Assembly: GCA_021787475.1 (NCBI GenBank) | Contig: JAJYLW010000011.1 | Coordinates: forward strand, 2,741 to 66,740 | Source: Actinomycetes bacterium | GTDB taxonomy: Bacteria > Actinomycetota > Thermoleophilia > BMS3ABIN01 | DNA length: 64,000 bases | Direction: 5' to 3' | Part shown: in pieces, positions 978-43,748 of the stretch | Layout of the letters: every line of letters starts with the position of its first letter | How positions within the stretch are numbered: position 1 is the first letter of the stretch | Made by a program: the position numbers and the translations under genes | The notes under the pieces: generated by a model | What the model saw: the letters and a program-made list of their open reading frames with translations, nothing else | Databases searched by the model: none | Told to the model about the DNA's origin: nothing

Positions 978-2381
978 TCAAAAAACCTTACTTCTGAGCC
1001 CAGCCGTCCTCGGCATATGAGGATTATCTTCGGGGTGACTGATACGCGCTAGGCCAAGCGCCTGCCCATGGATTCCGGGAGCCGTTGAAAGCACCAGAGC
1101 GTCAAACAGGTCCGGACCTCTTCCCATCCGCTTCTTGGTTTCCTCTTTCAACTCGATCTGGATACGCCCGTTGCGAACACGGTACTTTATCGCCAGTATC
1201 TGCCGACGCAGCTCGGCGTCATCCGGCAAGTCAACCAGCTCATTGTGCAGCAGTTCCCGCAGGTGCCAGACCATTTCAGCTTTCAGATCGTAGAACTTGG
1301 CTGGGTCGTTGGCCTTGGCATTGGCGATGACCCCCACTACCGGGTGGTTGCGCTGCCTGAGCCGGTCGGTTACGCCGCCGCCCAAGCCAACATCGTCAAT
1401 CTTGATCGCGGCGACAGGAACATCGGTGCCCACATAACCATGTATCAGGTCCGCCGTCTGCATCGTGTCGAGCTTCTTCTTGCGGGCAACCAGATCGATA
1501 TGCAAACCCTGGCGCCGGAAAATAACGGTCTCATCGCCGCCAAACCTGGCAATATCAGCACCGTATTCCACCACTGGCCCGGAGGCGGGAATAACACGCT
1601 TCATCGCTTTGTCCACGTCGGCAAAATCAAACACCTGATCGACCGAGCCGACGGCGTTCCAGTCGCCCTCCAGGTACGCCGCCAGCAGCTCGGGCGTATC
1701 GGCATAAATTTCACGCACTGACTCGATGTAGTCATTCGACAAATAGGGGTTGTCGGATGACAACGCCGGCACATAGCCATGGCCGGGTTTGGGCGTCTCG
1801 ATAAACTCGGGTATCAGCCAACACTGCTCGGGGTTGGACGCCAGGATCGTGATGTAATTGCCCGCCGCGGCTGGCGTCCGGCCCACCCGGGCGATCGCCA
1901 TCTTGGCCGATAGCCAGTCAACCTCGCTCGCCTCATCGATAAACAGGTAACCCAGCTCTAGCGACTTTACTTTTTCTCTGTCCTTGTGATCGCCCAGGCC
2001 GCCGTAGTCGATGCGGCTGCCATTGCGGTGCAGGAAATATTGCTCCGAGACATGGTGCTGCCAGCCGGGGCGGCTAAGGATGTCAACGCGCTCCAGGAGC
2101 GTCTGCAGCGTCGTGCGTTTAAAGACCACCGACTCCTTGCGGCACATGTAGCCGCGATTTCCGGGGATTGACTCACATAGATAAACACCGTAGGCGCAGC
2201 CGAAGTAAGACTTGCCGCCGCCGAACGCGCCGCCGTAGAGGATGACAGGAGCCGGACGTTCTGAGCGTTTGGCCGCGATTACGTAAAGGGCTTGCTGCTG
2301 CCGGGGGGTCCAGGTGAAAGGACTACTAAGCCGGCGGCGCTCAAGTTCACGCATGACGGTTTTAAGAAAGAGCCGGCTCAT
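978..2381 (-). CDS. terL: Phage terminase large subunit
   Basis: Walker A YGGAFGGGKS, Walker B LFIDEASE, C-terminal RNase H-like nuclease GADIARFGGDETV. Confidence 0.88.
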   Translation of the reverse strand: MSRLFLKTVMRELERRRLSSPFTWTPRQQQALYVIAAKRSERPAPVILYGGAFGGGKSYFGCAYGVYLCESIPGNRGYMCRKESVVFKRTTLQTLLERVDILSRPGWQHHVSEQYFLHRNGSRIDYGGLGDHKDREKVKSLELGYLFIDEASEVDWLSAKMAIARVGRTPAAAGNYITILASNPEQCWLIPEFIETPKPGHGYVPALSSDNPYLSNDYIESVREIYADTPELLAAYLEGDWNAVGSVDQVFDFADVDKAMKRVIPASGPVVEYGADIARFGGDETVIFRRQGLHIDLVARKKKLDTMQTADLIHGYVGTDVPVAAIKIDDVGLGGGVTDRLRQRNHPVVGVIANAKANDPAKFYDLKAEMVWHLRELLHNELVDLPDDAELRRQILAIKYRVRNGRIQIELKEETKKRMGRGPDLFDALVLSTAPGIHGQALGLARISHPEDNPHMPRTAGLRSKVF

Positions 2382-2707
2382 TTGGCGGCCTCCGTTTTTC
2401 TGCCGATAAAACGGACTCCAAGTTCTTCCTCCAGAAGTGCAATGAGATCGGTCTCGCTCAGTCCAGAGAGATCGTCTTCAACGTCTAGCGACAAGCGATC
2501 TCCGATTAAATGCTTTCCGAGCCATTCGCGCGCCCGGGGATCACCCCGCTTTGCATCTGCCACCGCCTTTTCAACAATGGCTTTCCAGTCATCCGGGGAC
2601 ACGGCCTCGGTGAGGGTTTCCAGGTAATCCTCTTCCACTTGCCGCCGGGGCCCGCCCGGCCCGCCCGGATTTCCTTTTGTAAAACGGCCCCTGCTATCGC
2701 GTGTCAC
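2378..2707 (-). CDS. DUF5681-like protein, putative terminase small subunit
   Basis: N-terminal GRFTKGNPGGPG motif; 4-bp overlap directly upstream of terL. Confidence 0.55.
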   Translation of the reverse strand: MTRDSRGRFTKGNPGGPGGPRRQVEEDYLETLTEAVSPDDWKAIVEKAVADAKRGDPRAREWLGKHLIGDRLSLDVEDDLSGLSETDLIALLEEELGVRFIGRKTEAAK

Positions 2708-3096
2708 GCTGCCGCTCCTTTCTGGTGAGCCTCAAACAGTTTCAGCGCTAGCTTCTCCCTAAGTTCCAGGATAGCCTTGAGCCTTCCGGTGTCCAGTGAC
2801 CAGTACGCGCGGTGGAGTTCGGCCTCCAGGCGCTCCCACTCGGCAGTGTCCAGCGGGCAGCCTTTCGGCCATGCCTTGGCCAGTCGCCGGGTAGATTCGA
2901 GTAGCAGCGCGTCCGCCTCTTCCTGAAACCTAAGCAGCGAAAGAAGCTCGGGCTTGTGATTCTTGAGCGATTGCACTAGGCTGTCCGGCAGCTTCTTGCT
3001 AAATGGGGTCGGCTCCAGGATAAGATCATCGCCGTCACGTTTGACTATGAAGTAATGGTCGATGACCTGGCTAAATAGTTCAGCCGCCGGATTCAT
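2704..3096 (-). CDS. Hypothetical replication-associated phage/satellite protein
   Basis: Coupled to both neighbours by 4-bp overlaps; LKNHKPELLSLL resembles TubC-N-like small domains found next to primases. Confidence 0.55.
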   Translation of the reverse strand: MNPAAELFSQVIDHYFIVKRDGDDLILEPTPFSKKLPDSLVQSLKNHKPELLSLLRFQEEADALLLESTRRLAKAWPKGCPLDTAEWERLEAELHRAYWSLDTGRLKAILELREKLALKLFEAHQKGAAA

Positions 3097-4577
3097 ATCT
3101 GAATCGCTCCCTCTCGCTCCAGAGGTGCCAAATCATCTTCGGAGAATGGTTGCACGGACTCCCTACTCCCTCCGCTCCCTCTTAGGACTATTGAATCCTC
3201 GTTATCTTCTCCAGAGGGATCGGAGGGAGCAGAGGGACTGGGCGTAAAAGGGACTCTGTACTTTCCATAATCCTGCTTTTTGATTTCGCCTTGTTCGGCC
3301 ATTTTGGGCATCAGTTTCTTTACCGCCTCGTAATCCTGGCCGGTCTTCTTTGCAACCACCTTCGGACCTAACGCCTCAGTTGACTTACGCAGGCACTCAA
3401 TTATTTTTTGCCGAGGGACGCTTCGCATGTGGTCTTCGGCGCTGCCGTCCAGCCTTGTCCAGAGGAAGTTGTCAAATGCCAGGGCAAGGTCCACCTCCGC
3501 CAGGTCCCGCCCGGTGCAGCGTAGCCTGCCATCGGCGCGGCCTTCACCGCCCTTGGAAAGAAGCATGACCGCGTCCGCAGTTCCTGTCAGGCCGTTGGAA
3601 CCGCTGATAAGCTCCATCCAATTGTCTAAGCCCTGCCTTTGATTCGTGTGGTGGACAGCCAGCGCAGCAATCCCAAATTCATCGGCCAGAGTTTTCAGCG
3701 GCCCCATGGCGGAGTAGTCTTCATCGTAGATATTTCCGCCCTTCGACCGCTGCCTAATTCTCACAAAGACATCCACGATAACTAGCCGCGTATCTGGATG
3801 TTTCTTTAGCCAGCTTCTTAGCTTTTCGTCGCCGCCGTCATCTAATCTTGGCCAGCCGATTTCAAGGTGAAGATTATTCGGTGCGGAGTTCCCCTGAAGC
3901 AGTTTTAACCCCCTGCTTTTGAGCCGTCGCCAGTTGTCTTCAAGCGCCAGATAAAGCACACGGCCCGATGTGCGGATCCTGCAATCAAGAAACGTGGCAC
4001 GACTACCAGCCAGGTCTGCAGCCAGGTCAAAGACAAACCACGACTTACCTATTTTTGGACTGCCCGCCAGCACGGTTAGCCCTACCTCGGGCAGCAGACC
4101 CTCCACGAGCCATTCAGGTTCCGGAAAGTCGGCAGCCACGAGTTCTGCAAGGGTGTAGCCCGTTTCGGGTGCGTGGCCTACTCTGTGAAGCTCGGGCAGT
4201 TCGCCGCCTTCTTCTGCAAGCTGTATTTTCTTTTTGGCTTCCTGGATCACAGTTCGCCGGACAGAATTTTCCTTGACTATCTCGGCATACTGAGCAGCGT
4301 TTGAGGCTACCGGGCATAGATTCAGCAATGTGTGGATATAGTTAGCACCACCGGCGCTTTCCAGCTCGCCCTGAGACTTGAGATGTTCTATTAAAGTCAC
4401 CGGGTCCGCATTCTCAAGTTCAAGTATTGCCTTGAAAATTAACCTGTGGGAATCGCGGTAGAAGTCCTCCGCGACAATTTCTGCCACTTGCGATATGACG
4501 TCGGGGGTTATCAAACATGCTCCCAGACCAGACTGCTCGGCTTCCAGGCTGTGCGGCGGCACGGCTGGCTTGCTCAT
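3093..4577 (-). CDS. Replicase: DnaB N-terminal domain fused to AAA_25 (RepA-like) helicase
   Basis: PPHSLEAEQ DnaB-N motif, Walker A GSPKIGKS, LYLALED, VIVD, HHTN; start moved to ATG 4577 (ATGA overlap). Confidence 0.8.
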   Translation of the reverse strand: MSKPAVPPHSLEAEQSGLGACLITPDVISQVAEIVAEDFYRDSHRLIFKAILELENADPVTLIEHLKSQGELESAGGANYIHTLLNLCPVASNAAQYAEIVKENSVRRTVIQEAKKKIQLAEEGGELPELHRVGHAPETGYTLAELVAADFPEPEWLVEGLLPEVGLTVLAGSPKIGKSWFVFDLAADLAGSRATFLDCRIRTSGRVLYLALEDNWRRLKSRGLKLLQGNSAPNNLHLEIGWPRLDDGGDEKLRSWLKKHPDTRLVIVDVFVRIRQRSKGGNIYDEDYSAMGPLKTLADEFGIAALAVHHTNQRQGLDNWMELISGSNGLTGTADAVMLLSKGGEGRADGRLRCTGRDLAEVDLALAFDNFLWTRLDGSAEDHMRSVPRQKIIECLRKSTEALGPKVVAKKTGQDYEAVKKLMPKMAEQGEIKKQDYGKYRVPFTPSPSAPSDPSGEDNEDSIVLRGSGGSRESVQPFSEDDLAPLEREGAIQI

Positions 4578-4702
4578 CGGGAATCCCCGCCTTCCGCGCA
4601 GGCCAGCAGTTTTTCCATCAGCGCAAGTGTCTGCCGCTCCAGCTCTGCTTTCTGCCGCCCGATCTGCGCCAGTTCGATTAGGATTTTTTGAATCTCGGTC
4701 AT
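4574..4702 (-). CDS. 42-aa coiled-coil hypothetical protein (not in ORF track)
   Basis: MTEIQKILIELAQIGRQKAELERQTLALMEKLLACAEGGDSR; TAATG overlap with xis stop and ATGA overlap with rep start. Confidence 0.6.
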   Translation of the reverse strand: MTEIQKILIELAQIGRQKAELERQTLALMEKLLACAEGGDSR

Positions 4703-4905
4703 TAGAACACGCCTCCGGGGACCACGCGGCGAGCCTCCATGAATTTTTCAACGTCGCTTTTTTTATAGCGGACCGCCGTGCCGCCAACCTTTAAATACTC
4801 TGGCCCCCGCCCCAGCGCTCGCCAGTTTCGGAGCGTCGATAGCGCCAAGGCCGTCATCTCTGAAACTTGAGCCTCTGTTAGATATTTGTCTTCCAACAAA
4901 TTCAC
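4702..4905 (-). CDS. AlpA/Xis-like helix-turn-helix protein
   Basis: YLTEAQVSEMTALALSTLRNWRALGRGPEYLKVGGTAVRY, typical HTH_17/excisionase. Confidence 0.85.
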   Translation of the reverse strand: MNLLEDKYLTEAQVSEMTALALSTLRNWRALGRGPEYLKVGGTAVRYKKSDVEKFMEARRVVPGGVF

Positions 4906-4986
4906 CTCCGCGCTTGTCTTTGCTTTTCTATTTACGTAGACTAACGCACAGCGGAAAGAGCTATAAATATTTTACAAGGCCTGCAA

Positions 4987-5818
4987 ATGACGCGATTTAT
5001 AGACATCAAACGATTGAGATATGCAGGAGAATTTAAATTTCTGTGCGAACAGAAGGGCTTAAACGGCGAAGGAGTCAAGCCTCTTTACCGGCTGAGTACT
5101 CATAACCCAGCGGCGCTCTTGCCGGACTATGAATCCAAGGATTTCTTCGATCAAATGAAACATCCCTTGAACAAATGGGGACTTACGTCAAGAGGCGGGT
5201 TCCCTGTTTTTGTCCGCTATCAAGAATACTCAGCTTTTCTCAATCAAGCCGGACAAAGGCGGCCATTTCCATGAGTTTATGCGTCAATCTTTCAGGGCGG
5301 CGTGGGACTTATCTGGAATTGAGAGAAAGTGGAAGGGATACCTGCCCGGCGGCACCACCACTTCCTTAAAGAGGAATGCCTGGGAAATATTTAGGCCTCA
5401 TGCCCTTGAGTTAAAAAAACAAGAGTCTGTCCGTTCGCCGGCGGCGCTGCTTAGAACTGCCACGGCCGAATTTGAGAGGTATCTGGTCGATCCACAAAGA
5501 GGAGAGTTTCCTCTTGAAACTCAGTGGGAGCTTTACGCTGAACTGATAATCCAATCCCGATGCCTGTATCTCTGGGATAGGGCTGCCGGCGGTTGGGAAA
5601 GAAATCAGGTTTCCGAGCGCGATTTCCTTGATAACGTTTTGCCGCCGTTGCGCTTGTGTCGCTATTGTGGCGACATCTTCACACAAGCACGGGGTTACAA
5701 GATTTCCTTCCGTTGTAACAAGCACGCCTGTAAAAATGCTGAGGATCGAAGATACATGAGAAAGCGCCGGGAACTACAGGCGGCAGGCAAACCGGCGCCG
5801 GATATTAAAGGCTACTAG
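4987..5818 (+). pseudogene. Divergent regulator-like gene with C-terminal CGNR-like zinc finger, split into ORFs 4987-5274 and 5210-5818
   Basis: Two ORFs overlapping 65 bp in adjacent frames; C-terminal CRYC...F...CNKHACKN..RRYMRKRR. Confidence 0.45.
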
Positions 5819-5846
5819 CCTTAATCTTTCCAAATCCTTACAGTTG

Positions 5847-6206
5847 TTAACCGACTGCCCGTTTATGGGTATTGCTTGCCCGGCGCTCTCTTGTATTAGA
5901 AGCCGGCACAAATTTGATCTCGACTTCGCAGCCGACGGCCTGGGCGTACTTCTTTAGCGTCATCACGGATGGGGAATGTTTTCCGGCAGCCTCCAGCCGC
6001 GATACCGCGCTTTTAGTCGTTCCCATTCTCTTGGCAACTGCTTCTTGAGTCAGGCCCGCCTTTGACCGGGCGCGGAGGAGTTCGCGGACAAGGGCGTATT
6101 TATCTTCCAGTTCCTGGTACGCCTCTTTGAAGCCGGCGCGTTTTCCGGCCCGCTTAAGAAACTTCTCATGGTCATGACGCACGGGGCGATATTTAAGGTC
6201 AGCCAT
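5847..6206 (-). CDS. XRE-family HTH antitoxin (HigA-like)
   Basis: RARSKAGLTQEAVAKRMGTTKSAVSRLE; directly downstream of the toxin. Confidence 0.85.
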   Translation of the reverse strand: MADLKYRPVRHDHEKFLKRAGKRAGFKEAYQELEDKYALVRELLRARSKAGLTQEAVAKRMGTTKSAVSRLEAAGKHSPSVMTLKKYAQAVGCEVEIKFVPASNTRERRASNTHKRAVG

Positions 6207-6525
6207 TTTGCACCTCTTTCATTCTTTCCCTGGCAATCTTTAAATCACGCTCGGAAGTTTTCCGGGTTTTCTTTATGAATGCATGAAGGATAACCACGCG
6301 CTGGCCTGTGGCAAAGCAATAGCAAGCGCGCCCAATACCTTCACGTCCACGCGGCCTAAGCTCGAAAAGCCCTTTCCCCATTGCCTTTGAATGAGGCATT
6401 TTAAGATCGGGTCCGAACTCTATCAGCAGTTCCGCCAGCCGCGCGTAATCGGCCAGGATGCCTACCGGCCAGCCTTCTATCTCTGCTTCCACGCGCCGGT
6501 GGAAGTACTCGATTTCATAAGGCAT
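6199..6525 (-). CDS. RelE/ParE-superfamily toxin (Gp49/HigB-like)
   Basis: MPHSKAMGKGLFELR...ILHAFIKKTRKT; toxin-first gene order. Confidence 0.85.
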   Translation of the reverse strand: MPYEIEYFHRRVEAEIEGWPVGILADYARLAELLIEFGPDLKMPHSKAMGKGLFELRPRGREGIGRACYCFATGQRVVILHAFIKKTRKTSERDLKIARERMKEVQNG

Positions 6526-6572
6526 AAACTATGTTAGCATTTACGCTAACTTATTTCCAATTACTTCGGTTT

Positions 6573-7712
6573 CTAACCATTACCTTGCAAGGGAATTGCG
6601 TGCTGTCTTGCCGCCGCTTTAACCAACCTCCCCGCCAGCTCTGCCGCTTGCCTCAGGGCGTCATCCCGGATATGGGCGTATCGATGGGTAACGGTCTGGC
6701 CCTTGTGAGTCAGCAACCGGCTAACGATGTCCAATGAAACGTCATTGGAAACAAGCATGCTGGCAAACACGTGGCGGATTCCGTGCAGCGGCCTAAAGTC
6801 TGCCGGCAGCTCAGATTCCGCTTTCAGTTTGTTAACTAGTTTCGTGATGCTGTGGCGCTGGCCGCCGCCCACGCCAGGAAAGACATACGGGCTGCCCGTC
6901 TCTTCGGTTTCCTTGATCGTGGAAAGTAAAGCGCCGGCGTAGCTGGAAAGCGGTATCACTTCATCGCGCCCGCTCTTGGCGTCTCTCAGTACGATGTTAT
7001 TCCTGTGCCAGTCAATATCCGCCCACATTAGTTTAAACATTTCCCCGCGCCTCATGCCGGTATAGAGCGCCAGCTTCATCATGGCTGCGCCCTGGCGGTA
7101 GGGTGTCTGGTATTTGATATGACCGTCGATCACCTCAAGCAGCCTTGTCAGTTGCTCCGGGGTTAAGTCCTCGGTCTTCTGGTTGCTGACTCTTGGGAGC
7201 TGGACGGTAAACCCCGGCCCCTGGCAAAGGCCGCGCTTTGTGCCGAAGTTGATTATCCTGATCAGCAGTTGCAGCGTATGCGCTACGGTCTTTGGGGACT
7301 TGTCTTTTAGTTCACGTCGCTTAAGCCGGTCGATGCCCAGCGCCAGGATATCGGCAGGCAGAAGATGGCCGAAATATGGTTCAAGATACTTACCAAAAAG
7401 ATATTCCATCCCCTTTTCTTTGCGGCCCGGATTGGCGCGCTGATATTCCTCCCATAGCGCCGAGACTGTCCACTGCTGCTTTTTTCTGACTGCGCGGCGT
7501 TCTTGATTTGAAAGTTCCCCGCCGATTCTGCGGGCGCGTACCTGGGAGGCCTTGGCTGCCGTCATGTTATCCCGCTTCTGGCGGCCCGCCACTTCCTGCA
7601 CCTGTTTGAAAGTCCCGCCCTCACAGCGCAGGCGGTAGCTAATATAAAAAACCACGTCAGCTTCAGACTCGTACTTGTACACGCCTGGATATCTGGTTTT
7701 CGTAAGCTTCAT
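6573..7712 (-). CDS. int: Tyrosine recombinase/integrase
   Basis: Catalytic R (TGMRRGE), K, HGIR, H (LLTHK) and Y (HRYAH) intact; GGAGG RBS before ATG 7712. Confidence 0.92.
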   Translation of the reverse strand: MKLTKTRYPGVYKYESEADVVFYISYRLRCEGGTFKQVQEVAGRQKRDNMTAAKASQVRARRIGGELSNQERRAVRKKQQWTVSALWEEYQRANPGRKEKGMEYLFGKYLEPYFGHLLPADILALGIDRLKRRELKDKSPKTVAHTLQLLIRIINFGTKRGLCQGPGFTVQLPRVSNQKTEDLTPEQLTRLLEVIDGHIKYQTPYRQGAAMMKLALYTGMRRGEMFKLMWADIDWHRNNIVLRDAKSGRDEVIPLSSYAGALLSTIKETEETGSPYVFPGVGGGQRHSITKLVNKLKAESELPADFRPLHGIRHVFASMLVSNDVSLDIVSRLLTHKGQTVTHRYAHIRDDALRQAAELAGRLVKAAARQHAIPLQGNG

Positions 7713-7895
7713 GGTGCCTCCTGTTGCCATTAAGGAAAAACGTGAATGTTTGAAAATCGTCTTCCAAACACTATTCCAAACATTTTTGAAGTATATCGTG
7801 GTATAGTGGCGGAAGACAAGGGAAATGAGAAGGGCTGCGTTAGCAGGGATTTTGTGAAAAGGAGGTGAAAGACGTCAAACGGGGGAAAAGGGGAA

Positions 7896-33391: not shown

Positions 33392-34024
33392 CTAAACCAT
33401 CCCGGCCAGGTACTCCGCTTCGCACCGCACCCAATACTCCACGAATTTGCCCAGCCCTTTTAAATAGCATGTGCGGGCATTGCTGACAATGTCTTTCGCA
33501 AAGCCGGGCACCCATTTTAACAGGTGATCTTCAATAAAGTATTTTTGAACTTTAATCAAATCCGGCCGGTGATCTTCATCGGCGACCAGCATCAGACTGC
33601 ACAATCTGAAGAGAAAATCACATTCAGTGCCAAAATGATCTTCCAGCTCGCCGGCAGTTGTTTCGAACCCGTACCTCGCGTACAGCTTCCGCACCGCCAC
33701 GGTAGCCTCTTGGTTGACCAATCGGTATATTGATGTATAAACGGACTCCCACGGCGGCGCCTTGACGTGGCCGGGGCCGTGGAAGAGCTGATAGAAATCC
33801 TGCCGGACATCATCAAGATTGCCGGACGCGAGTTCGCTTTGGGCGCATTCGCTCATCTCTTTGACGCCGGGAAGGTCTATCAGCTCTTCCAGGAGCCTGC
33901 TCTCCAACAGGCCGGCAAAGAACTCTTCAGTCGGTTCGTGAAGAAAAGCACGCCTGAGGAAGTCGTAAATTACAACCCTGCTATGTGTTTCCGGTTCTAT
34001 CGCTTTCTCCTCACCGACTAACAT
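33392..34024 (-). CDS. TorD/DmsD-family chaperone
   Basis: APPWESVY, ELEDHFGTEC, HLLKW. Confidence 0.9.
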   Translation of the reverse strand: MLVGEEKAIEPETHSRVVIYDFLRRAFLHEPTEEFFAGLLESRLLEELIDLPGVKEMSECAQSELASGNLDDVRQDFYQLFHGPGHVKAPPWESVYTSIYRLVNQEATVAVRKLYARYGFETTAGELEDHFGTECDFLFRLCSLMLVADEDHRPDLIKVQKYFIEDHLLKWVPGFAKDIVSNARTCYLKGLGKFVEYWVRCEAEYLAGMV

Positions 34025-34033
34025 CCTTTACTC

Positions 34034-34585
34034 CTATTGTTCGCTTGGCGGGATGATCCGTATGGACGGATGCGTGTACTTTGGGTCAGCAAAATAGTTT
34101 ATGTGCTTGCCGGTGTCGCCCGCAAGCCCGGAAAGCTTGCCGTACTTGAGCACCCGGGCCATGCATGTCAGCACGCATGCCGGCGGCAGGCCGGCGTCAA
34201 TCCGCTGATAGCACATGTGGCACTTTTCAACTTTCTTGGTGACAGGATTGAACTGGGGCGCTCCATACGGGCATGCCTCCATGCAGCGCTTGCAGCCGTT
34301 GCAGACATTGGAGTCCAGGATGACGATGCCGTCAGTATCTCTTTTGGTTATCGCGCCTACCGGGCATGATTTTATGCAAGCAGGGGACTCGCAGTGGTTG
34401 CACGACATTGACATGAAGTTCTTGAACGGCGTCGGATACGTGCCGCCGTCAAACGTCTCGACCCGGCGGTACTCGGCTCCCAGCTCAACCTGGTTCTGCT
34501 GTTTGCAGGCTCCCTGGCAGGCCCGGCAGCCGATGCAATGCTCCATGTCTATCTGAAAGCCGAGCTGATTAGGATTAGCAGCCAT
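34034..34585 (-). CDS. 4x[4Fe-4S] electron-transfer subunit (DmsB/PsrB-like)
   Basis: CIGCRACQGAC, CNHCESPAC, CNGCKRCMEAC, CHMC...PAC. Confidence 0.93.
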   Translation of the reverse strand: MAANPNQLGFQIDMEHCIGCRACQGACKQQNQVELGAEYRRVETFDGGTYPTPFKNFMSMSCNHCESPACIKSCPVGAITKRDTDGIVILDSNVCNGCKRCMEACPYGAPQFNPVTKKVEKCHMCYQRIDAGLPPACVLTCMARVLKYGKLSGLAGDTGKHINYFADPKYTHPSIRIIPPSEQ

Positions 34586-34603: not shown

Positions 34604-37213
34604 CTAAGCCTTGTAGACTTTTACGGCCACTTCCTTGCTGATTCCCTGGCCGGATATTGCTTCAGGCTTGCCGGGCATCAAACGCCCCGCAGCCGTGCCT
34701 TTGCCTTCGGCGACTGATCCCAGGGCCCAGTGGCCGAAACCGTGCATGACGCCCACGGTGGTAGGCTCAATTCCCTCGACGGGGAAAGCGGTGGCGTCCA
34801 CTGTGGCAATGGGAGACTCGATCTTGATGGCGTCGCCGTTCTTGATGCCCATGCTGTCGGCAACCGCCTTGTTGATCAGGCAGGGGTTGGTTCCCTTCAT
34901 CTCCATTAGCCAGACATTGTTGAACGTGCGCGTATGAGTGTGTTCCGTCTGCTTCCAGGAAACCATGTAGAACGGGTAGCCGTCGTAGCCGAGCTGCCCG
35001 GGAGCATCGACCGGATCGCGGTAAACCGGCAGGGCGTCGTACCCCGCCGTTTGCAGAGACTTGTAACCAGAGATGGCGTCAGCTGTGCCGGACCCGGCGT
35101 CGGTGCCGCTGTAGGAATTGAGGACGATCTTCTGGTTGCCGCCGATAACAGTCTTTAATTTGCTGACAGTTCCGTACTTGGTGCCCCAGTTACTGACATT
35201 CGCCACCAGATCATTCAGAGTTGGCCAAACCGCTCCTGGCAGCGCCTTAAGAGCATTCAGGGCCGCATCGCAGTCGGCCATATTTGTGGGGTCTCCCGAG
35301 GGATACAGGTTTCCCTTGATCGTGGAATTCAGCAGCAGCTGCTGGCCGAGATATTGTGTTTCTGTCATGCTGAAATCACCGGGGGCCGTGCTGCCGGCGT
35401 CGCCCTTTAGCCCCAACCTCCGGCCCAGCTCCATAATGATGCCAATTTCGTCGATGTAGGGATTCCCCACCCAGGAGCTGACGGTTGGCTGCCGCAGGCC
35501 GAAACTGTAAAACGTTACCCAGTTGACCGTGAAATCGTAGCGTTCCAGAAAGTTGGCGCCCGGAAGGATAATGTCAGCCATTTGGGCAGTCTCGCTCAGA
35601 TGCGTGTCGATCGAGACAATGTATTCCAGCTTGTTCAAGCCATCAATGTTCTTCTGGACATTTGATGAGTTCATCACCAGATTGTCAAAGACAAAGATGG
35701 CTGCCTTGGGCCGGTTTGTATCAGCGTCGGAGGCGCTGCTGCCCAGATATGGGTACTTGGCATAGTAATCATCCGCGGACAGGTCAGAATCATAAATAAC
35801 GTCGCGGGCGCGAAGGACAATTCCCGATCCATGACCGAGAGGGAAACCGTTTTGACTAAGCGGCTTTCCCAGGCCGTCGATGCGGGGGCGACTCAGAGAA
35901 GCGTCATGGGTATTGGTTGCCGTCCGCGCCGATGGACCCAGGCGGTTGGTGAAGACAGCGTTGCCCTTGTTGCCTATCTGGCCGGTCAGGGCCAGCAGCG
36001 CCGAGATGGCCCGGCCGCCCTGGGTGCCGTTGGTGTGATGCCCCGGCCCCGACCAGGTGTCGATCACTGCCGGATAATTGCTGGACTCGCCAATCTCGCG
36101 GGCAAGGCTGACAATCGTGGCGGCCGGCACGCCGGTTTTGCCTTCGGCCCAGTTGGGATCCTTGGGGACGCCGTCGCTGACGCCGGTGACGTAATCGCTA
36201 AACGCCTGAAAGCCAATCACGTTGGCATTGACGAAGGCGACATTATACAGGTTCTCATTGATAAGCACGTTGGCAAGCGCCAGCGCCAGGGCCCCGTCGG
36301 TGCCCGGCTTGATCGGCACCCACTGGCCGCCGTTTCTGCAGGCCGCCGCCGCCGTGCTGCTGAAAACGGGGTCAACGACCACCATTCGCCCGCCGTTGTC
36401 AAAGAATTGGCGCGCAATCCGGGGCAGGTGAGACCACTTGGTGGCCGAAAGGAAATTCCAGCCGAAGATCAGAGCGTACTTGGCATGGGCGAAATCCGGC
36501 ACGGGCCGCTCGTCGCCAAAGGGAACGCTGAAGGCCCTCTTCCTGGCGACGTCACACAAGCTGGTGTGCTGGATATAGTTTGGCGTGCCGAACATCTTGC
36601 AAAAATCCTGCTGCGGATTATTGCCGGTGATGCCGTCCTCGGAGAAGAAAAGCAACTGGTGGGCGCCATTGCCGCTTTGCTCGGCCTTAAGGCCCTGCAG
36701 ATACGTCGTGATCTCGTTCAGGGCATCATCCCAGGTGATGGGATTGAAAACCGCGCCGACGCCACGGGGACTGCTCGGGTCCCGCTTCATGGGCGTCTTG
36801 ATGCGGTCCGGGTCGTAAAGCGACTTGTAGCCGGAGTTGCCCTTGGGGCACATGCCTGCGCCCCATCCGGTGGTGGCGTTAACAAAGTCAGCCGCGTCAC
36901 TGGTATCATTAATACAGATGTTGGCGACGCCGGCGGCGTTGTACGGATTGGGTTCGATTTTCCTAACCGCGCCGTCGACGACATTTACGTTGATGCCCGA
37001 GCAGCCGCCACACATGTTGCAGGCGCTGTATATCCAGGTTCCGGCGTCGTCGGCTTTCGCCTTGTCGGAATCGAAAACCTGCCGCAGCAGACCCCCGGGC
37101 AACAGGGTGCTTGCCACCGCTGTCCCGCCGATGGCGCTTCCCCATTGCAGAAAGGCGCGGCGGGAAACAGCCGGATTTAATTTCATGCCTCCCTTGCTGT
37201 TCACATCTGTCAC
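34604..37213 (-). CDS. Tat-exported bis-MGD molybdopterin oxidoreductase catalytic subunit (Cys-ligated, Psr/Phs/Ttr/Arr-type; substrate unknown)
   Basis: SRRAFL Tat motif, N-terminal Fe-S Cys motif, GTPNYIQHTSLC, PGTDGALAL, DIILP, C-terminal HTHTRT. Confidence 0.9.
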   Translation of the reverse strand: MTDVNSKGGMKLNPAVSRRAFLQWGSAIGGTAVASTLLPGGLLRQVFDSDKAKADDAGTWIYSACNMCGGCSGINVNVVDGAVRKIEPNPYNAAGVANICINDTSDAADFVNATTGWGAGMCPKGNSGYKSLYDPDRIKTPMKRDPSSPRGVGAVFNPITWDDALNEITTYLQGLKAEQSGNGAHQLLFFSEDGITGNNPQQDFCKMFGTPNYIQHTSLCDVARKRAFSVPFGDERPVPDFAHAKYALIFGWNFLSATKWSHLPRIARQFFDNGGRMVVVDPVFSSTAAAACRNGGQWVPIKPGTDGALALALANVLINENLYNVAFVNANVIGFQAFSDYVTGVSDGVPKDPNWAEGKTGVPAATIVSLAREIGESSNYPAVIDTWSGPGHHTNGTQGGRAISALLALTGQIGNKGNAVFTNRLGPSARTATNTHDASLSRPRIDGLGKPLSQNGFPLGHGSGIVLRARDVIYDSDLSADDYYAKYPYLGSSASDADTNRPKAAIFVFDNLVMNSSNVQKNIDGLNKLEYIVSIDTHLSETAQMADIILPGANFLERYDFTVNWVTFYSFGLRQPTVSSWVGNPYIDEIGIIMELGRRLGLKGDAGSTAPGDFSMTETQYLGQQLLLNSTIKGNLYPSGDPTNMADCDAALNALKALPGAVWPTLNDLVANVSNWGTKYGTVSKLKTVIGGNQKIVLNSYSGTDAGSGTADAISGYKSLQTAGYDALPVYRDPVDAPGQLGYDGYPFYMVSWKQTEHTHTRTFNNVWLMEMKGTNPCLINKAVADSMGIKNGDAIKIESPIATVDATAFPVEGIEPTTVGVMHGFGHWALGSVAEGKGTAAGRLMPGKPEAISGQGISKEVAVKVYKA

Positions 37214-37320
37214 TTAGCTCACCTCTTTCATTTCGCTCTCGGCGCCGCGGATGCTATGGCGCATTTTTTCTGCCAGACTGGATTTTGCTTTCACTTGTTT
37301 CATCGCTTGCCTGACCCTGG

Positions 37321-37476
37321 CTACGATCCTGGCGCCGGCGGCACCGTCACGCTGCACTGCCAGTTGGAGCACTCGCGGGTGACCTCGGCAATGTTGCCAA
37401 GCTGTGTGACAGCCGGCGGCGCATACTCTTTCAGCTTGCCTGTAGCCGGTTCAGGTTTTTTCATTAAGGCTTCCAT
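37321..37476 (-). CDS. 51-aa peptide with lasso/RRE-type RiPP leader (not in ORF track)
   Basis: MEALMKKPEPATGKLKEYAPPAVTQLGNIAEVTR-ECSNWQCSVTVPPAPGS; YxxPxVxxxGxxxxxTx; GGAGAAAGG RBS. Confidence 0.75.
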   Translation of the reverse strand: MEALMKKPEPATGKLKEYAPPAVTQLGNIAEVTRECSNWQCSVTVPPAPGS

Positions 37477-37539
37477 GTCAGCCCTTTCTCCGTTCATTTT
37501 CAGAAAAGCAATCTCGCTTTTGACTTCTTGTGGAGATGG

Positions 37540-38478
37540 CTATGGCTTGGAAGGCCAGTATTGCGTTTGGTTGTCATCATTGACAGCGTTGGCGTAGACC
37601 GTTGTATAAAAAAAGCCGACTCCGCCTGGTACTTGATACACCAGCGTGAAGTTGGTGGAACCGCCTTCGGCCACATCGCCCAAATTAAGCGGCATCGGGG
37701 TGGCCACGCCAACGCCGTTCGTTGACAGGACCTGCGAAATATTCAAACCATTCGCAGTACCCGAACCGCTGTTGGCGATGGAGAAGTCCACTGACAGCTT
37801 CCCGGCATTGTAATCACTAAGGTTGGCCCAGTAGATATTGCCGCGGTTCAGCCCGAGAGCTGCTGCGCCGCTTAGATACCAAGCTCTGCCACCGTGGCAG
37901 CCGTAGCAGTCGCTGGGGCCGATATTGGCGTTATTAACATACGGCGCCTTGCTCGCATGCTGGCTCTGCCAGTCAGAGTGGCAAGAAATGCAGTCCTGCG
38001 TTGCCCAGGCGGGGTCCATCGTCGCCGGGAAAGGACTATGGCATTTTGCACACAAACCGATATCAACCTGCCTCCGGACAGAAGACGCGGATTCCTCCCT
38101 GACGTCCACCGACTGGTGGCAGGTAGTGCACGTGAACGAGAGCAGGTTTGAAGTCAGATGCGCCTTGTGAGGAGCGTCGTAATATTGATTGTGAACGGCA
38201 TCGAACAAAGACTGGTCGTCGGGGCTGCTGACCTTGTCTCCGTGGCAGCTGATGCAATCGGAGTACTGTTGAATGCCGGCGTTGGTATGGTAGTCAGCCA
38301 CATCCGAATGACATGATACGCACTCGGAATAGTTGTAATGTGGGGCGTCCGGTGCAGCCGAAGTAGCATACAGAACGCTTGCGCCAACAGCAAACACAAA
38401 GATTATCGTCAGGGCCACTATAACAGCGGCCCTTTTCTTCAAGATGGCGTCCTTTGCCTTAAAGATCAATTCCTTCAC
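37540..38478 (-). CDS. Hexaheme cytochrome c with C-terminal beta-sandwich domain
   Basis: Six CxxCH motifs (CVSCH, CISCH, CTTCH, CAKCH, CISCH, CYGCH); N-terminal signal/anchor. Confidence 0.92.
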   Translation of the reverse strand: MKELIFKAKDAILKKRAAVIVALTIIFVFAVGASVLYATSAAPDAPHYNYSECVSCHSDVADYHTNAGIQQYSDCISCHGDKVSSPDDQSLFDAVHNQYYDAPHKAHLTSNLLSFTCTTCHQSVDVREESASSVRRQVDIGLCAKCHSPFPATMDPAWATQDCISCHSDWQSQHASKAPYVNNANIGPSDCYGCHGGRAWYLSGAAALGLNRGNIYWANLSDYNAGKLSVDFSIANSGSGTANGLNISQVLSTNGVGVATPMPLNLGDVAEGGSTNFTLVYQVPGGVGFFYTTVYANAVNDDNQTQYWPSKP

Positions 38479-38895: not shown

Positions 38896-40416
38896 ATGAA
38901 AATGTTGGGAATGATAGATGCAAAATCCGCGAGAACTTGCATCAGGCGCCTGGTGACGCCATCGTTATTCATTATTCTGCCGTTGATAACACTCTTTCTA
39001 TTACTGCTGATAACAGCACCGGCGCGGTTATCCGCCGCCAGCAGCGAGTACGATTACTACTTTCCTTGGTACGACAACAATGCCGCCTGGGGGATGAACG
39101 GTGACTGGATCCTTATCTCCAACCGCGGCACGGGCAACGCAGATGTAAGCATCGAAGTAGTCGGGAAAACAGTGGCTTTATTTGACGCCGCTCATGACAC
39201 CGCTCTCGCGCCTGGCGTCCATGTCGAGTGGCACTCGCCAACCACTCTTACAAACGGCCCGGTGAAAGTAACGTCGACGAACGGCGAGCCCTTGAACGTC
39301 AGTCAGCGTGTGCTTTACAAAGATTCTTTCCAGGAGATTAATTCCGTACCCGGCATGGGGCTGGAAAGCGACTACCTCTTTACCTGGTATGACAATATCG
39401 CTGCCTGGGGCATGAATAGGGACTGGATCTGCGCAGCAAACACAGGCGACAAGCCCACCATGATTAATATCTACGTCGGCGACGTAACCGACAGCGCCAC
39501 GCCGGTGGCAGCGCTCGGCCCGCTGGCGCCGGGCCAGCATATTGAGTGGCAGTCGCCTGCGCGCCTTGCCAACGGCCCTGTCAGAGTAGCGTCCCCGTCG
39601 GGCGAGCCTTTTCTTGCCGGCCAGCGGTCGCTATTTAAGGACAGTTTCGCCGAAGTCCCCGGGGTGGCGGCTTCAAAACTGGGCGCGGGAGCCGTGTTTC
39701 CCTGGTATGACAAACAGTCAACGGGGATGAACGGCGACTGGGTGCTGGTGGCCAATAAAGATGATTTCAATCCGGTCCGCGTTCAAATCAGCATCGGCGG
39801 CGAGATTATGAATGACCCGCAAAATCCCGGCAACAATTTCTTTGTAATTGCCCCCCGGGGCCGCATTACGCCCCAGTTCCCCGGACGCATGGGAGGGCCG
39901 GTATACGTCACTTGCCAGGATTGCAATCAGGGCGAGAAATTGATTGTAAGTCAGAGAACAATATTTAAGGATTCCTTCCACGAAGAGGACGGGATTCTCC
40001 TCGAGCCCGCCGGCACCTTCGGCAGCAGCACCTGGACCTATCCCATTCCCGTGCCCGGACCGGGCCAGACAATACCATGGCAGCCATCAAATGATATCGG
40101 CGCCGACGCCTGGTTCAACTGGTATGACTCCAAACCGGCCGACAATATGGCTGGCGACTGGATTTTGATCGCCAACCTGGGCGGTACGCCGGCCGATGCC
40201 AACATTACCATCGGTGGTACAAGTATGATCAATCCGGCGACCGGCAATACTCACTTTCCCATCGGGGCGGGAAGCATCATAACGCCTCATTTCGCCAACC
40301 TGATGAAGGGGCCGGTCTTCGTCGGCTGCTTTAATTGCACCTCCGGCCAACTCCTGCTCACCAGTCAAAGGGTTATTTACAAGAACAGCTTCAACGAACT
40401 GGCAGGAACGCCGTAA
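38896..40416 (+). CDS. Secreted protein made of four WYD repeats
   Basis: Signal peptide; four WYD...DW[IV]...GPV...[SG]QR...SFxE units. Confidence 0.85.
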   Translation: MKMLGMIDAKSARTCIRRLVTPSLFIILPLITLFLLLLITAPARLSAASSEYDYYFPWYDNNAAWGMNGDWILISNRGTGNADVSIEVVGKTVALFDAAHDTALAPGVHVEWHSPTTLTNGPVKVTSTNGEPLNVSQRVLYKDSFQEINSVPGMGLESDYLFTWYDNIAAWGMNRDWICAANTGDKPTMINIYVGDVTDSATPVAALGPLAPGQHIEWQSPARLANGPVRVASPSGEPFLAGQRSLFKDSFAEVPGVAASKLGAGAVFPWYDKQSTGMNGDWVLVANKDDFNPVRVQISIGGEIMNDPQNPGNNFFVIAPRGRITPQFPGRMGGPVYVTCQDCNQGEKLIVSQRTIFKDSFHEEDGILLEPAGTFGSSTWTYPIPVPGPGQTIPWQPSNDIGADAWFNWYDSKPADNMAGDWILIANLGGTPADANITIGGTSMINPATGNTHFPIGAGSIITPHFANLMKGPVFVGCFNCTSGQLLLTSQRVIYKNSFNELAGTP

Positions 40417-40500: not shown

Positions 40501-41268
40501 CTAGGGCGCTGTTTGCCCTGCTATCTCCCGCCGCAGCTGTGCCAGTTTGCTCCTGCTAACCGGTATCCTGGACCGGCGGGCGTCGTTGAGCTCCACAAGA
40601 TACGATCCGCGCTTTAAAGAAAACAGCTTGCCAGCTTTGGCCAGGTTGACAATGAAGCTTTTATGCACGCGCATGAAGCCCTGCGGTAGCTGGCTTTCAA
40701 CCTGGCTGATGTTGCGGCGCAAGACATATTTGTCATCATTCGTATGAAGATAAGTGTTATTCCTGTCCGCCGCCGCAAAAAAAATACTGGCAAGATCAAC
40801 AAAAATTGTCTCTCTTCCTTTGCGGGCCATTATCTTGCCGCCGTCCGGAGAAGGTGCCGGCTGCCGGGCCGCCGCCCGCTTGGCGCCGGACCGCTCCAGA
40901 GCGACCTTGACGCGCGCCGCCAGCTCCTTGACGCTGAAAGGCTTGGTAATATAGTCCTCCGCCCCCAGTTGAAACCCCAACAATTTCGAAATCTCTTCGC
41001 TCTTGGCCGACAGAAGGATTACCGGTATGCCTCGGGTTGCAGGATCGTTTTTAATGTGCGAAAGGACTTCCCAACCATCAACCTCGGGCATCATAATATC
41101 GAGGATAATGGCGTCAGGATTTGCGGCTTTGATCTTGGCCAAAGCATCCCGTCCGCTCTGGGCGCATTCAGTCTGATATCCTTCGCTCTCGAGGTTGAGG
41201 CAGACTATGTCGCAGATCCCGGGTTCATCATCAACAACAAGAATCTTCTTGGACAACGTCATTTCCAT
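40501..41268 (-). CDS. Response regulator, REC plus LytTR
   Basis: VVDDE, LDIMMP, KPF; FMRVHKSFIVN, IPVSR. Confidence 0.9.
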   Translation of the reverse strand: MEMTLSKKILVVDDEPGICDIVCLNLESEGYQTECAQSGRDALAKIKAANPDAIILDIMMPEVDGWEVLSHIKNDPATRGIPVILLSAKSEEISKLLGFQLGAEDYITKPFSVKELAARVKVALERSGAKRAAARQPAPSPDGGKIMARKGRETIFVDLASIFFAAADRNNTYLHTNDDKYVLRRNISQVESQLPQGFMRVHKSFIVNLAKAGKLFSLKRGSYLVELNDARRSRIPVSRSKLAQLRREIAGQTAP

Positions 41269-41298
41269 TCTTTCACCGCCTCCATCACTGTATTCAAC

Positions 41299-42834
41299 TC
41301 AATTAACAATAATATCACTGATTGTCTTTGCTCCGGCATCAGTCTCGTCCCTGTCAAGAACAGGCAAAGGCAAAGCAATGGAAAAAACTGTTCCCTTGCC
41401 GACGCGGCTTGCCACGCTAATAACCCCCCCGTGGCCCTCGACAATTCCTTTGGCAACGGCAAGTCCCAGGCCCATCCCCGGATGTTTGCGGGTTGTGGGA
41501 CTTTCTACTTGATAAAACGGCGTGAACAGGTATCTTAACTCTTTCTTGGGAATGCCGGTGCCCGTGTCGGAAATTTCAACGATATCCTGACGTTTTTTTG
41601 CATCGAAATAGGCATGAACCTTCACTGTACCGCCCTCTGAAGTAAAATCAATCGCGTTGGCGACCAGATTGTGAAACACCTGGTGCAGGCGAGTCTCGTC
41701 GCCGGCCAAGTGCGGTAATCCGTCGGGAATGTCCCTTTCAAGGTTAAGCTTGCGCTCGGAAGCCTCCAGGGCAAATTCATCAATCACGGCATCGAGCACC
41801 TTGCTCAAAGCCAGCTCCTGCCGCTCGACGACGAGGCTTCCCCGTTCAATTAATGAAAAATCGAGAGACTTGTCAACAATATCGGACAATCTGTCCACGC
41901 TGTCCATGACCAGGGCCAGTTTTTCTCGCTGCCTGACATTTGCTTTCCCCAGATTCCCGGCCAAAATGGTTTCGATGTAACCCCTGATTAGAGACAAAGG
42001 GGTCTTCAATTCATGGGACACCACAGCGATGAACCCGGATTTCATGTGATCCAGCTCGCGCAGCTCCTTGTAGGCCTCACGAATGGCTTTGTAATTTCGC
42101 TCTAGTTTCTCATAGGCCACCTTCAGTTCTGATTGGCGCTCCTTAAGGATCTGCGCCATATGATTGAAATCCTGCGACAGTTCGCCCAGCTCATCTTCAG
42201 ACCTAACCGGTATTTTAAAATCAAGATTTCCTTCAGAAATCTGTTTAGCGCTGGCGGTCAAGCTCCGCACCGGCTTCACGATCATTCGCATGGCCACAAA
42301 CGCCATTACTGCAGCCGAAGCGACAATGACAATTAAAAGCAGGCCGGCCAAGGAGAGCACCACCGCCAGAACATTGCTCTTGATGCGGCTCAGGGAAACG
42401 TACATATCAACCCTGCCGAAATTCCTGCCATTAATTGTCAGTGGAACGCTGGTTTTAATCATTCCCGCGCTTTCAGCCGGGGTCTGACTGCCTGCCTGGC
42501 GCGAAGAATGGATCAGCAACTTGCCTGCGGTGTCATAAACTCCCACGTAAACAATTTCCCGCCTTTCGTCCCGCGCCAACACACCGTCAGTGCTGTCCTG
42601 CAAGTCAACAAAATCATTTGTCAACAGATCGGGAAGAGCAGTACCCGCTAGCGTGTTGGCAATTTCCGTTGACGAATTGACCTTTTGATCTACTAGCAGC
42701 GAGTTCATCCTTTCCGTTCCCAGCCCTGATAGCAAGACGCCGGCAAGCGCCATTGTGAGCGAGAGAATAATTACGACCTTCTTGCCCAGCCCAAGGTTAT
42801 TAAAATAATTCCTGAGACGGCGAAAAATAGTCAC
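41299..42834 (-). CDS. HAMP-HisKA-HATPase sensor kinase
   Basis: Two TM helices, DELGELSQDFN, VSHELKTPL, NLVANA, DTGTGI, GMGLGL. Confidence 0.92.
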   Translation of the reverse strand: MTIFRRLRNYFNNLGLGKKVVIILSLTMALAGVLLSGLGTERMNSLLVDQKVNSSTEIANTLAGTALPDLLTNDFVDLQDSTDGVLARDERREIVYVGVYDTAGKLLIHSSRQAGSQTPAESAGMIKTSVPLTINGRNFGRVDMYVSLSRIKSNVLAVVLSLAGLLLIVIVASAAVMAFVAMRMIVKPVRSLTASAKQISEGNLDFKIPVRSEDELGELSQDFNHMAQILKERQSELKVAYEKLERNYKAIREAYKELRELDHMKSGFIAVVSHELKTPLSLIRGYIETILAGNLGKANVRQREKLALVMDSVDRLSDIVDKSLDFSLIERGSLVVERQELALSKVLDAVIDEFALEASERKLNLERDIPDGLPHLAGDETRLHQVFHNLVANAIDFTSEGGTVKVHAYFDAKKRQDIVEISDTGTGIPKKELRYLFTPFYQVESPTTRKHPGMGLGLAVAKGIVEGHGGVISVASRVGKGTVFSIALPLPVLDRDETDAGAKTISDIIVN

Positions 42835-43748
42835 TGGATTACGTGCGCCTTAACCAGATTTGCTTCAAGGCTGCCAACAGAGTTATAGAGGGACTTGTCA
42901 ACGGGAATAAACTTTTCTATCCCCAGTTTTGATAAAATCTGTTTCCCCTGAGGATCTTTGTCCATCCCCGTCAGAACGCTTAACAACTGGTTCCGCAGTT
43001 CGCGGGACATGCCTGGGCGGGTTACCAGGGGAGGGGAACCAAAAGGCGGCGATTCCTCGATTATATCGAGCCCGCTGACGCTGGCCGGATCATTGGCTTT
43101 CATGTAATCATATATGTAGCTGTCGACGGCGACGCCATCGACAACTCCTTCCTTGAGCGCCTTGATGGAATTATCATGATTATTTGCAACTATGATATGG
43201 CTAAAAAAAGCGCCTGGCTGATAACCCAGGTCAACGACGCGGGATTCCGGGTAGAGAGTGCCCGTGAGCGAAATAGGATCACTAAAAGCAAAAGGGTGGC
43301 CGCGCAACTGCTCAAACTTACTGATGCCGCTGCCGCTGCGGGTGACGATATAAGAGTAATATAGGGGTTGCCCATTAACTACGGGCGCTACCAAGGGAGA
43401 CAAATGGAGTTTGTCAAAGGCCTTGATATAGCCGCCGGAACAGAGGATGGCAACGTCGGTGTCTCCGCGCGCCAATAAGTCATTTACTTCTGAATAACTG
43501 CCGGTCTGCTGCAATACCGTCGGATGCCCCGTTTTTTTGGCAATATAATCAAACAGTTGCGAGTAAACCGAATAAGACTCCTTGGGAGTAAACATGCCAT
43601 CGATGGATATGCGGATTTCACTAGCGGCAGCAACAGAGTCTGCGGTGTGCGTCGATGCTCCTCCGTTGTTAGCGCAGGCTGCAATCGAAAGGGCAAGCAA
43701 TAAAGCAGCCAAAAGGGAAAGCGCCAATCTGCGAGGCGAGAGGTACAC
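42831..43748 (-). CDS. PhnD/AioX-like oxyanion-binding lipoprotein
   Basis: Lipobox IAAC; DVAILCSGGY, YYSYIV, FSDPISLTG. Confidence 0.8.
   Translation of the reverse strand: MYLSPRRLALSLLAALLLALSIAACANNGGASTHTADSVAAASEIRISIDGMFTPKESYSVYSQLFDYIAKKTGHPTVLQQTGSYSEVNDLLARGDTDVAILCSGGYIKAFDKLHLSPLVAPVVNGQPLYYSYIVTRSGSGISKFEQLRGHPFAFSDPISLTGTLYPESRVVDLGYQPGAFFSHIIVANNHDNSIKALKEGVVDGVAVDSYIYDYMKANDPASVSGLDIIEESPPFGSPPLVTRPGMSRELRNQLLSVLTGMDKDPQGKQILSKLGIEKFIPVDKSLYNSVGSLEANLVKAHVIQ

Follow-up and report, generated by a model that had tools for sequence, protein, structure and literature searches.

The linear polyphosphorylated peptides (LPP) of Bacillota, a cyclase-less sister class of the lasso peptides, are the closest described system to the peptide considered here (Popov et al., Nat Commun 2026, PMC13381572). 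Their precursors carry the leader motif YxxPxVLxHQxIxFET, which is cut after T(-1) by a SpI-like peptidase presented by an RRE; Ser3 of the core is polyphosphorylated by an HprK-like kinase and an MsbA-type exporter is part of the system (PMC13381572). The role of LPP is unknown, and their loci are found near capsule genes (PMC13381572). HPr-kinase homologues also phosphorylate the linear, leader-bearing precursors of lasso peptides (PMC8498205); indeed, in both classes HprK-like kinases act on linear precursors that still bear the leader (PMC8498205; PMC13381572).

A small gene with a leader of this type is present in a molybdoenzyme operon on a stretch of 64,000 nucleotides of the Actinomycetota contig JAJYLW010000011.1 (the window). 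It belongs to a peptide family whose members are mostly encoded directly behind exported proteins ending in an Ig-like domain; this peptide-domain partnership is undescribed and represents the central finding of the analysis. The features of the locus are collected in Table 1.

Table 1. Features of the peptide locus and of its operon (positions in the window)
Feature	Position	Strand	Basis or remark
Peptide gene, 51 aa and TAG stop	37321..37476	-	Undescribed peptide family, lasso/LPP-type leader
Leader, residues 1-34, with Y18, P21, V23 and T33	37375..37476	-	NF033521 match, family conservation
Core, ECSNWQCSVTVPPAPGS	37324..37374	-	Family-invariant part E-C-x-x-W-Q-C-S-V-x-V-P
Membrane-anchored hexaheme cytochrome c with Ig-like domain	37540..38478	-	Six CxxCH, N-terminal TM segment, Pfam Cytochrome_C7 and c3
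C-terminal Ig-like beta-sandwich of the cytochrome, about residues 190-312	37543..37911	-	Profile match, AF2 model, alignment
TAT-exported PsrA/PhsA-like molybdopterin oxidoreductase	34604..37213	-	Operon mate, not family-wide partner of the peptide
DmsB-like 4Fe-4S subunit	34034-34585	-	After the molybdoenzyme
TorD-like chaperone	33392-34024	-	After the molybdoenzyme

The peptide gene is translated from the minus strand as MEALMKKPEPATGKLKEYAPPAVTQLGNIAEVTRECSNWQCSVTVPPAPGS. The sequence directly 5' of it is GGAGAAAGGG, with the RBS-like elements GGAG and AAGGG located 11 and 5 nt, respectively, upstream of the ATG at 37476; translation might also begin at the ATG at 37497 and give a form of 58 residues, but this is less likely. 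The gene lies between those for the hexaheme cytochrome c and the molybdopterin enzyme, and no terminator-like site was found across the cytochrome-peptide-molybdoenzyme stretch. In a 90%-identical relative an 80%-identical copy is found at the corresponding position, and the peptide is retained also in operons where the molybdoenzyme is merely 65-67% identical (L002/L003 and L004/L007), with the pattern Y..P.L.........T.EC..WQCSV.VPP. Comparison of syntenic operons, proposed as a check in the preliminary description of this DNA, thus revealed the peptide in all four lineages of the operon type. Across 85 distinct copies, the invariant residues of the family are encoded by 2-4 synonymous codons each, with up to four for the unconstrained invariant W, Q and V; Val26, for instance, is encoded by GTA in 34 copies, GTG in 22, GTC in 21 and GTT in 8. 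Since synonymous codons vary at residues that do not, selection acts on the protein. Judged by family, synteny and synonymous codon variation, the open reading frame that the preliminary description considered to be missed by annotation is a genuine gene under protein-level selection.

The source metagenome (mine drainage, run X1) contains the locus at a depth of about 24. Over positions 37332-37385, which correspond to the peptide core only, the depth jumps to 181 and several different flanks are found, because other contigs share only the core; this indicates many paralogues in the same sample. All runs that contain the locus are DNA runs, and no RNA run with it was found. Between the peptide gene and the molybdoenzyme gene there is a further open reading frame of 29 codons (37214-37303, minus strand; MKQVKAKSSLAEKMRHSIRGAESEMKEVS), which is retained only in the 90%-identical relative and is absent from L002 and L004; therefore it is probably not a gene, and the segment is probably an untranslated spacer bearing the ribosome-binding site of the molybdoenzyme.

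The NCBIfam model NF033521 (lasso_leader_L3) matches the 58-residue form over YAPPAVTQLGNIAEVTR with 19.8 bits, the cut-off being 19 bits; by passing this threshold, the product conforms to the unannotated, leader-bearing RiPP-type peptide initially proposed. Lasso-B2-like processing would place the cut after R34, LPP-like processing after T33. With the cut after R34, all the positions previously assigned to the leader motif, Y(-17), P(-14), V(-12), G(-8) and T(-2), are correct, but G(-8) does not belong to the conserved set, position -8 being mostly D or E across the family. Among the 85 copies, Y is conserved in 98% and the third motif position is L or V in 96%; P and T were fixed by the pattern used to select these copies, and both are invariant in the peptides found with HMMER. 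With the same cut, core positions 7-9 are C, S and V, so that a ring-forming acid is lacking and a canonical lasso ring would be impossible, in agreement with the earlier observation that neither Asp nor Glu is present there. An alternative lasso register, with the cut before G27 and a G1-E9 ring, was considered and rejected, since the family conserves neither G27 nor E31. The CxxxxC pair of the core is invariant in the family. No signal peptide is found on the peptide, whereas the Ig-like domain is extracytoplasmic.

The family motif is Y-x-x-P-x-L-(9)-T-x-E-C-x-x-W-Q-C-S-V-x-V-P-P, and at least 150 relatives of the window peptide are found in a clade of anaerobic Actinomycetota MAGs. HMMER searching against 1.8 billion representative proteins gave 20 matches, of which 13 are short peptides with the motif (40-77 aa, E 2e-15 to 8e-4) and the remainder are long, unrelated repeat proteins; chance would not account for such a result. 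When one genome was scanned for each prokaryotic species, 76 loci were identified, in MAGs labelled Thermoleophilia, Gaiellales, Actinomycetes, Actinomycetota, 'uncultured bacterium' or 'Bacterium BMS3Abin01'; a further 67 loci came from metagenomes, with some duplication of MAG contigs. The genome-derived loci, 81 with the window included, hold 92 peptide genes and the 67 metagenome loci 69 more, while the counts of neighbouring genes refer to 143 fetched loci with about 160 family members. Several MAGs carry at least 6-7 dispersed copies each. No description of the family, either by its core motif or as RiPPs combining a kinase and a surface protein, was found in the searchable literature. 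On the sequences available, the family is dispersed and undescribed, and it appears confined to this clade of anaerobic Actinomycetota.

Among the neighbours of the peptide genes one dominates, the same-strand gene just upstream. The upstream proteins, from 150 to 1087 residues long, bear Sec-type signals or anchors and mostly do not contain CxxCH; their N-terminal modules are unrelated, being NosD/beta-helix, FN3, Big_13, beta-propeller, heme, or none known. The sole feature that they share is a C-terminal Ig-like domain of ~105 residues, with the consensus KPxLxL..YWAS.ADY....LSVD..I.N.G...A..V.I.G...TNGVT.....P...G.I..G.S...T.KY.VP.GV..F.T...A.A.D.CG..YTYP; therefore, the unit is an exported protein ending in this domain together with the peptide. 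The domain has no match in Pfam, NCBIfam or PDB sequences, and Foldseek retrieves generic Ig-like sandwiches only, some of which are peptide-binding (adaptin ear domains). A profile made from 68 C-terminal tails of upstream proteins, 58 of them from the domain-bearing cluster, matches a single place in the window with hmmsearch, namely the cytochrome (1.4e-42), which by this measure is one domain carrier among many.

In the genome loci the peptide gene is located directly behind 67 of the 77 domain-bearing ORFs, and in several of the exceptions directly in front instead; among the metagenome peptides that could be evaluated, 53 of 58 sit behind the domain. About 90% of evaluable peptide genes are directly behind an Ig-like domain, in most pairs with a spacing that ranges from overlap by 49 nt to a gap of about 90 nt, and the coupling of the two genes is evident from these neighbourhoods. 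A fusion of the two products by stop-codon read-through was also considered and rejected: in the window the two genes share a reading frame interrupted by one TAG, but the same holds for only 20 of 66 pairs, as expected by chance, and in L001, the closest relative, the frames differ. About 20 peptide genes lack a neighbour with the domain, and Pfam analysis of the genes around such orphans gave housekeeping families only (P-type ATPase, helicase, SLOG, Ku, PMT). One orphan site is recurrent, between a SLOG/LOG-like gene and hemC-hemA-sirC-ccsA-resB, for heme synthesis and cytochrome c maturation; copies at this site occur in L017, L035, L065, L069, L072 and L077 (e.g. L062:6146-6394).

Domain and peptide were modelled together with AF2 as one chain, composed of the window domain, the natural 22-residue spacer (read through TAG) and the peptide, using an alignment in which 20 natural in-frame pairs were mixed with unpaired rows. 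The Ig-like domain is modelled as a beta-sandwich with pLDDT above 94, and Q-C-S-V-T of the core forms a five-residue beta strand with pLDDT 82-87; when the peptide is folded alone the strand is absent, yet the pLDDT of the core is similar. The QCSVT strand may pair with the Ig-like domain.

As for the other genes of the window, those for the molybdenum cofactor also follow the molybdoenzyme gene. Beside the operon, at 40501-43748 on the minus strand, are genes for a PhnD-fold binding protein, a HAMP histidine kinase and a REC-LytTR regulator; all four operon lineages retain this set, which is divergent from the operon in L001-L004 and probably acts as the molybdoenzyme's substrate sensor. The plus strand encodes at 38896-40416 a secreted protein of 506 residues with four internal repeats (F/P-W-Y-D..AWGMNGDW..GPV.V.S..SQR.L.KDSF.E), without Pfam or NCBIfam match, homologues of which (28-40% identity) are located 1-6.5 kb from peptide genes in at least seven other loci (L010, L013, L015, L027, L037, L053, L070). 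Close to the window start (978-7730) there are genes for a tyrosine integrase and a DnaB-like helicase as well as a weak terminase-like ORF, which points to an integrated element.

About 50 ORFs of the window were scanned against Pfam, and neither PqqD nor a transglutaminase-like protease, an Asn-synthase-like cyclase or a SPASM enzyme came up; five ORFs gave no match at all and a sixth (978-2381) only a sub-threshold phage-terminase match, while a MoaA homologue is expected by synteny. The view that the window contains no maturase, so that any maturation must act in trans, is thus confirmed. A RiPP-like, trans-matured nature of the window peptide is plausible but unproven. The best-linked candidate for a trans-acting maturase is an HprK/ScmC-type kinase, which is absent from the window. 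In 10 of the 20 MAGs, and in several more metagenome contigs, genes are found in the order domain protein, peptide, lipoprotein (175-197 aa), 341-349-aa protein, domain protein, peptide; the fourth of these products matches HprK-related kinase A/B and ScmC (TIGR04352 at 1.7e-16; PF07475 and PF27840), and in those 10 MAGs it adjoins one family member each. Run X1 contains at least three contigs with a related kinase, about 80% identical, and close homologues of the peptide-linked kinase (64-100% identical) bear, where named, only the labels Actinobacteria, Actinomycetota or Thermoleophilia. The adjacency of kinase and peptide, occurring in one syntenic housekeeping locus, could represent an inherited neighbourhood rather than function.

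The lipoprotein, which is always encoded immediately upstream of the HprK-like kinase, displays a GGCG lipobox, a two-Cys mini-domain, a long G/S/T/P linker and the tail W..GGIEIVVPPAP; its tip sequence ends ...GGWDSGGIEIVVPPAP. It was found in L022, L023, L025, L044, L048, L056, L059, L071 (10273-10839), L074 and, truncated, L029, as well as in the metagenome loci L086, L113 and L135. The tail resembles WQCSVTVPPPPAP of the peptide, and no look-alike was found in other protein families of the loci.

A paralogous kinase, 35-38% identical to the peptide-linked one, heads a cassette in another Thermoleophilia-labelled MAG (L081:8001-11677 / L082:6403-10079), composed of the ScmC-like kinase, PqqD, Transglut_core3 (lasso B2 type) and DUF2079, with glycosyltransferases and PMT_2 downstream. 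Neither a cyclase nor a precursor gene is present in the cassette, and the latter absence fits dispersed precursors. Such a cyclase-less cassette is presumably comparable to the 'HPr-rel-A system' of NCBIfam. One of its copies derives from the JGI metagenome Ga0265292, which is also the source of peptide-bearing contigs. A tblastn search of 149 loci and the window, with one PqqD and one B2 query, found no PqqD, B2 or DUF2079 homologues outside L081/L082. Moreover, no cyclase occurs among the Pfam-scanned neighbour families of the peptide genes and no SPASM enzyme in the window or in the recurrent neighbour families scanned, and RRE, SpI-like peptidase, MsbA-like exporter and NTP-transferase were not found among the conserved neighbour families.

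The interpretation preferred here, with a probability of about one half, is that the peptide is matured from its leader into a linear (non-lasso) form, which serves the Ig-like domain as a ligand or cap in a 1:1 ratio. The leader (Y-x-x-P-x-L...T) would be read by lasso/LPP-type machinery encoded in trans, for which the HprK/ScmC-type kinase is the best-linked candidate, with the RRE, the leader peptidase and the exporter encoded elsewhere. A core of about 16 residues (E-C-x-x-W-Q-C-S-V-T-V-P-P-x-P) would then be released and directed to export by the leader, its mature form probably bearing a Cys-Cys loop and possibly a phospho-Ser. Binding to the Ig-like domain would occur 1:1, through addition of the S-V-T-V strand to the sandwich, and the bound core could represent a cap, an adaptor, or a competitor or mimic of the lipoprotein 'stalk' tip (W..G-G-I-E-I-V-V-P-P-A-P). 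In the window, the peptide would serve the docking domain of the cytochrome and not the catalysis of the molybdoenzyme. A more tentative extension, in itself rather doubtful, is that of a surface-docking pair, in which the matured and possibly phosphorylated peptide would be the obligatory 1:1 ligand, as a cap, an adaptor or an anchor mimic, of a new Ig-like 'socket' on dozens of unrelated exported proteins, a respiratory multiheme cytochrome among them, and the lipoprotein 'stalk' with its look-alike tip would be the membrane-side partner.

Different explanations can be proposed for the same observations. The product might be a free, diffusible linear RiPP, for instance an LPP-like phosphopeptide, a signal or an antimicrobial, with scattered precursor genes that are merely co-transcribed with those of surface proteins, whose Ig-like domain would not be bound. 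The lasso/LPP-type leader match, the linked HprK-like kinase and the about 20 copies devoid of a domain neighbour are consistent with such a product, and LPP and paeninodin clusters are likewise found in cell-surface loci, with role unknown; however, a near-invariant core, at least 6-7 dispersed copies per genome and a position behind one domain in ~90% of the cases would be unexpected. The cores of antimicrobial RiPPs are usually far less conserved than that of this family, and a diffusible product is considered unlikely. Distinctly unlikely is also an unmodified small cytoplasmic protein acting on the upstream product or on its synthesis, either as an escort for export or folding or by translational coupling, which would resemble RiPP leaders by convergence. 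The tight spacing behind the upstream gene, the lack of a signal peptide and the lack of an adjacent maturase in most loci would be in line with this possibility, and the Pro-rich C-terminus at the stop codon could slow termination. Nevertheless, the NF033521 match together with the LPP spacing at seven positions would be hard to obtain by convergence, the genes that follow the peptide differ between loci and often run in the opposite direction, and the partner proteins have Sec-type signals or an N-terminal membrane anchor, so that the Ig-like domain folds outside the cell.

The preliminary description interpreted the peptide as a RiPP-like component of anaerobic respiration, that is, a modified subunit or a redox or metalloid-binding dithiol of the molybdoenzyme, comparable to QhpC. 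Peptide, cytochrome and molybdoenzyme do share one operon with no terminator between them, the peptide is retained in all four lineages of this operon and the CxxxxC pair is invariant. However, among the 143 loci the molybdoenzyme is found behind the peptide only in the operon type of the window (window, L001/L005, L002/L003, L004/L007), while elsewhere the peptide follows non-redox exported proteins, and heme or redox domains are lacking in most partner proteins; the analogy with QhpC is likewise unsupported, because no radical-SAM/SPASM enzyme is linked to the family, and the maturation gene for which linkage is seen, the HprK/ScmC kinase, is of the lasso/LPP tailoring kind. The respiratory role, very improbable at this point, is largely refuted by the family distribution as far as gene neighbourhoods can tell. 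Finally, a canonical lasso peptide produced by a B1/B2/C cluster elsewhere in the genome would account for the lasso-type leader with T at -2; such an origin is extremely improbable, given that D/E is missing at core positions 7-9, that the G1-E9 ring involves residues not conserved in the family, and that no cyclase was seen in the loci scanned.

For annotation, these data concern about 160 small genes and a family of ~105-residue domains that are now missed or without a family model; furthermore, the peptide should not count as evidence on the role of the molybdoenzyme. If the peptide is a matured domain ligand, lasso/LPP-type leader machinery would be at work in the assembly of envelope proteins, a testable role would become available for LPP-like and kinase-type peptide systems that have no assigned function, and a new domain-peptide pair would organise surface proteins, respiratory cytochromes included, in subsurface and mine-drainage Actinomycetota. 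If two-part docking is true, RiPP machinery would serve such assembly and not the making of natural products.

When known systems are compared, QhpC, the gamma subunit of quinohemoprotein amine dehydrogenase, is similar in being a small leader-bearing peptide and the stoichiometric partner of an exported redox protein. It differs in that both the radical-SAM/SPASM maturase and the Cys-to-Asp/Glu thioether pattern are absent here; moreover, the peptide is paired with a non-catalytic Ig-like domain, carried mostly by proteins other than redox enzymes. The phosphorylated lasso peptides (paeninodin, pseudomycoidin and Bsf type) share the [Y/W]xxPxL leader and the conserved penultimate Thr, and their kinase works on the linear precursor (PMC8498205); differently from them, the present family has neither a cyclase nor a ring-forming acid, and the C-terminal Ser of the window copy is not conserved in the family. 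The L081/L082 cassette would supply the leader-binding and leader-cutting functions implied by the leader of the peptide; however, it is absent from all peptide loci, and cassette and family were seen together in the same JGI metagenome (Ga0265292) and not in one genome.

With LPP the similarity is wider. The family consensus Y-x-K-P-x-L-V-K-H-x-N-L-K-x-I-T is spaced as the LPP motif, with matches at Y1, P4, the hydrophobic positions 6-7 (L6, V7), H9 (71%), the hydrophobic position 12 (L12) and T16; F14 and E15 of LPP are unmatched in the family, and the window copy has L at position 9. An HprK-like kinase, the main enzyme linked to LPP, is the best-linked candidate here, next to one family member in 10 of the 20 MAGs but absent from the window, and in both systems the genes associate with cell-surface loci. 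Conversely, LPP belong to Bacillota and this family to Actinomycetota; the phospho-acceptor Ser3 of the LPP core corresponds here to an invariant Cys, the invariant Ser of the family being found six residues further on; and the SpI-like peptidase, RRE, MsbA exporter and NTP-transferase are not beside the precursors, which are dispersed in many copies, whereas those of LPP are clustered with their enzymes. In terms of sequence, the family is LPP/lasso-like at the leader, yet without the defining features of either class: its core is near-invariant, whereas LPP cores are highly variable, and each copy is normally paired with an Ig-like domain.
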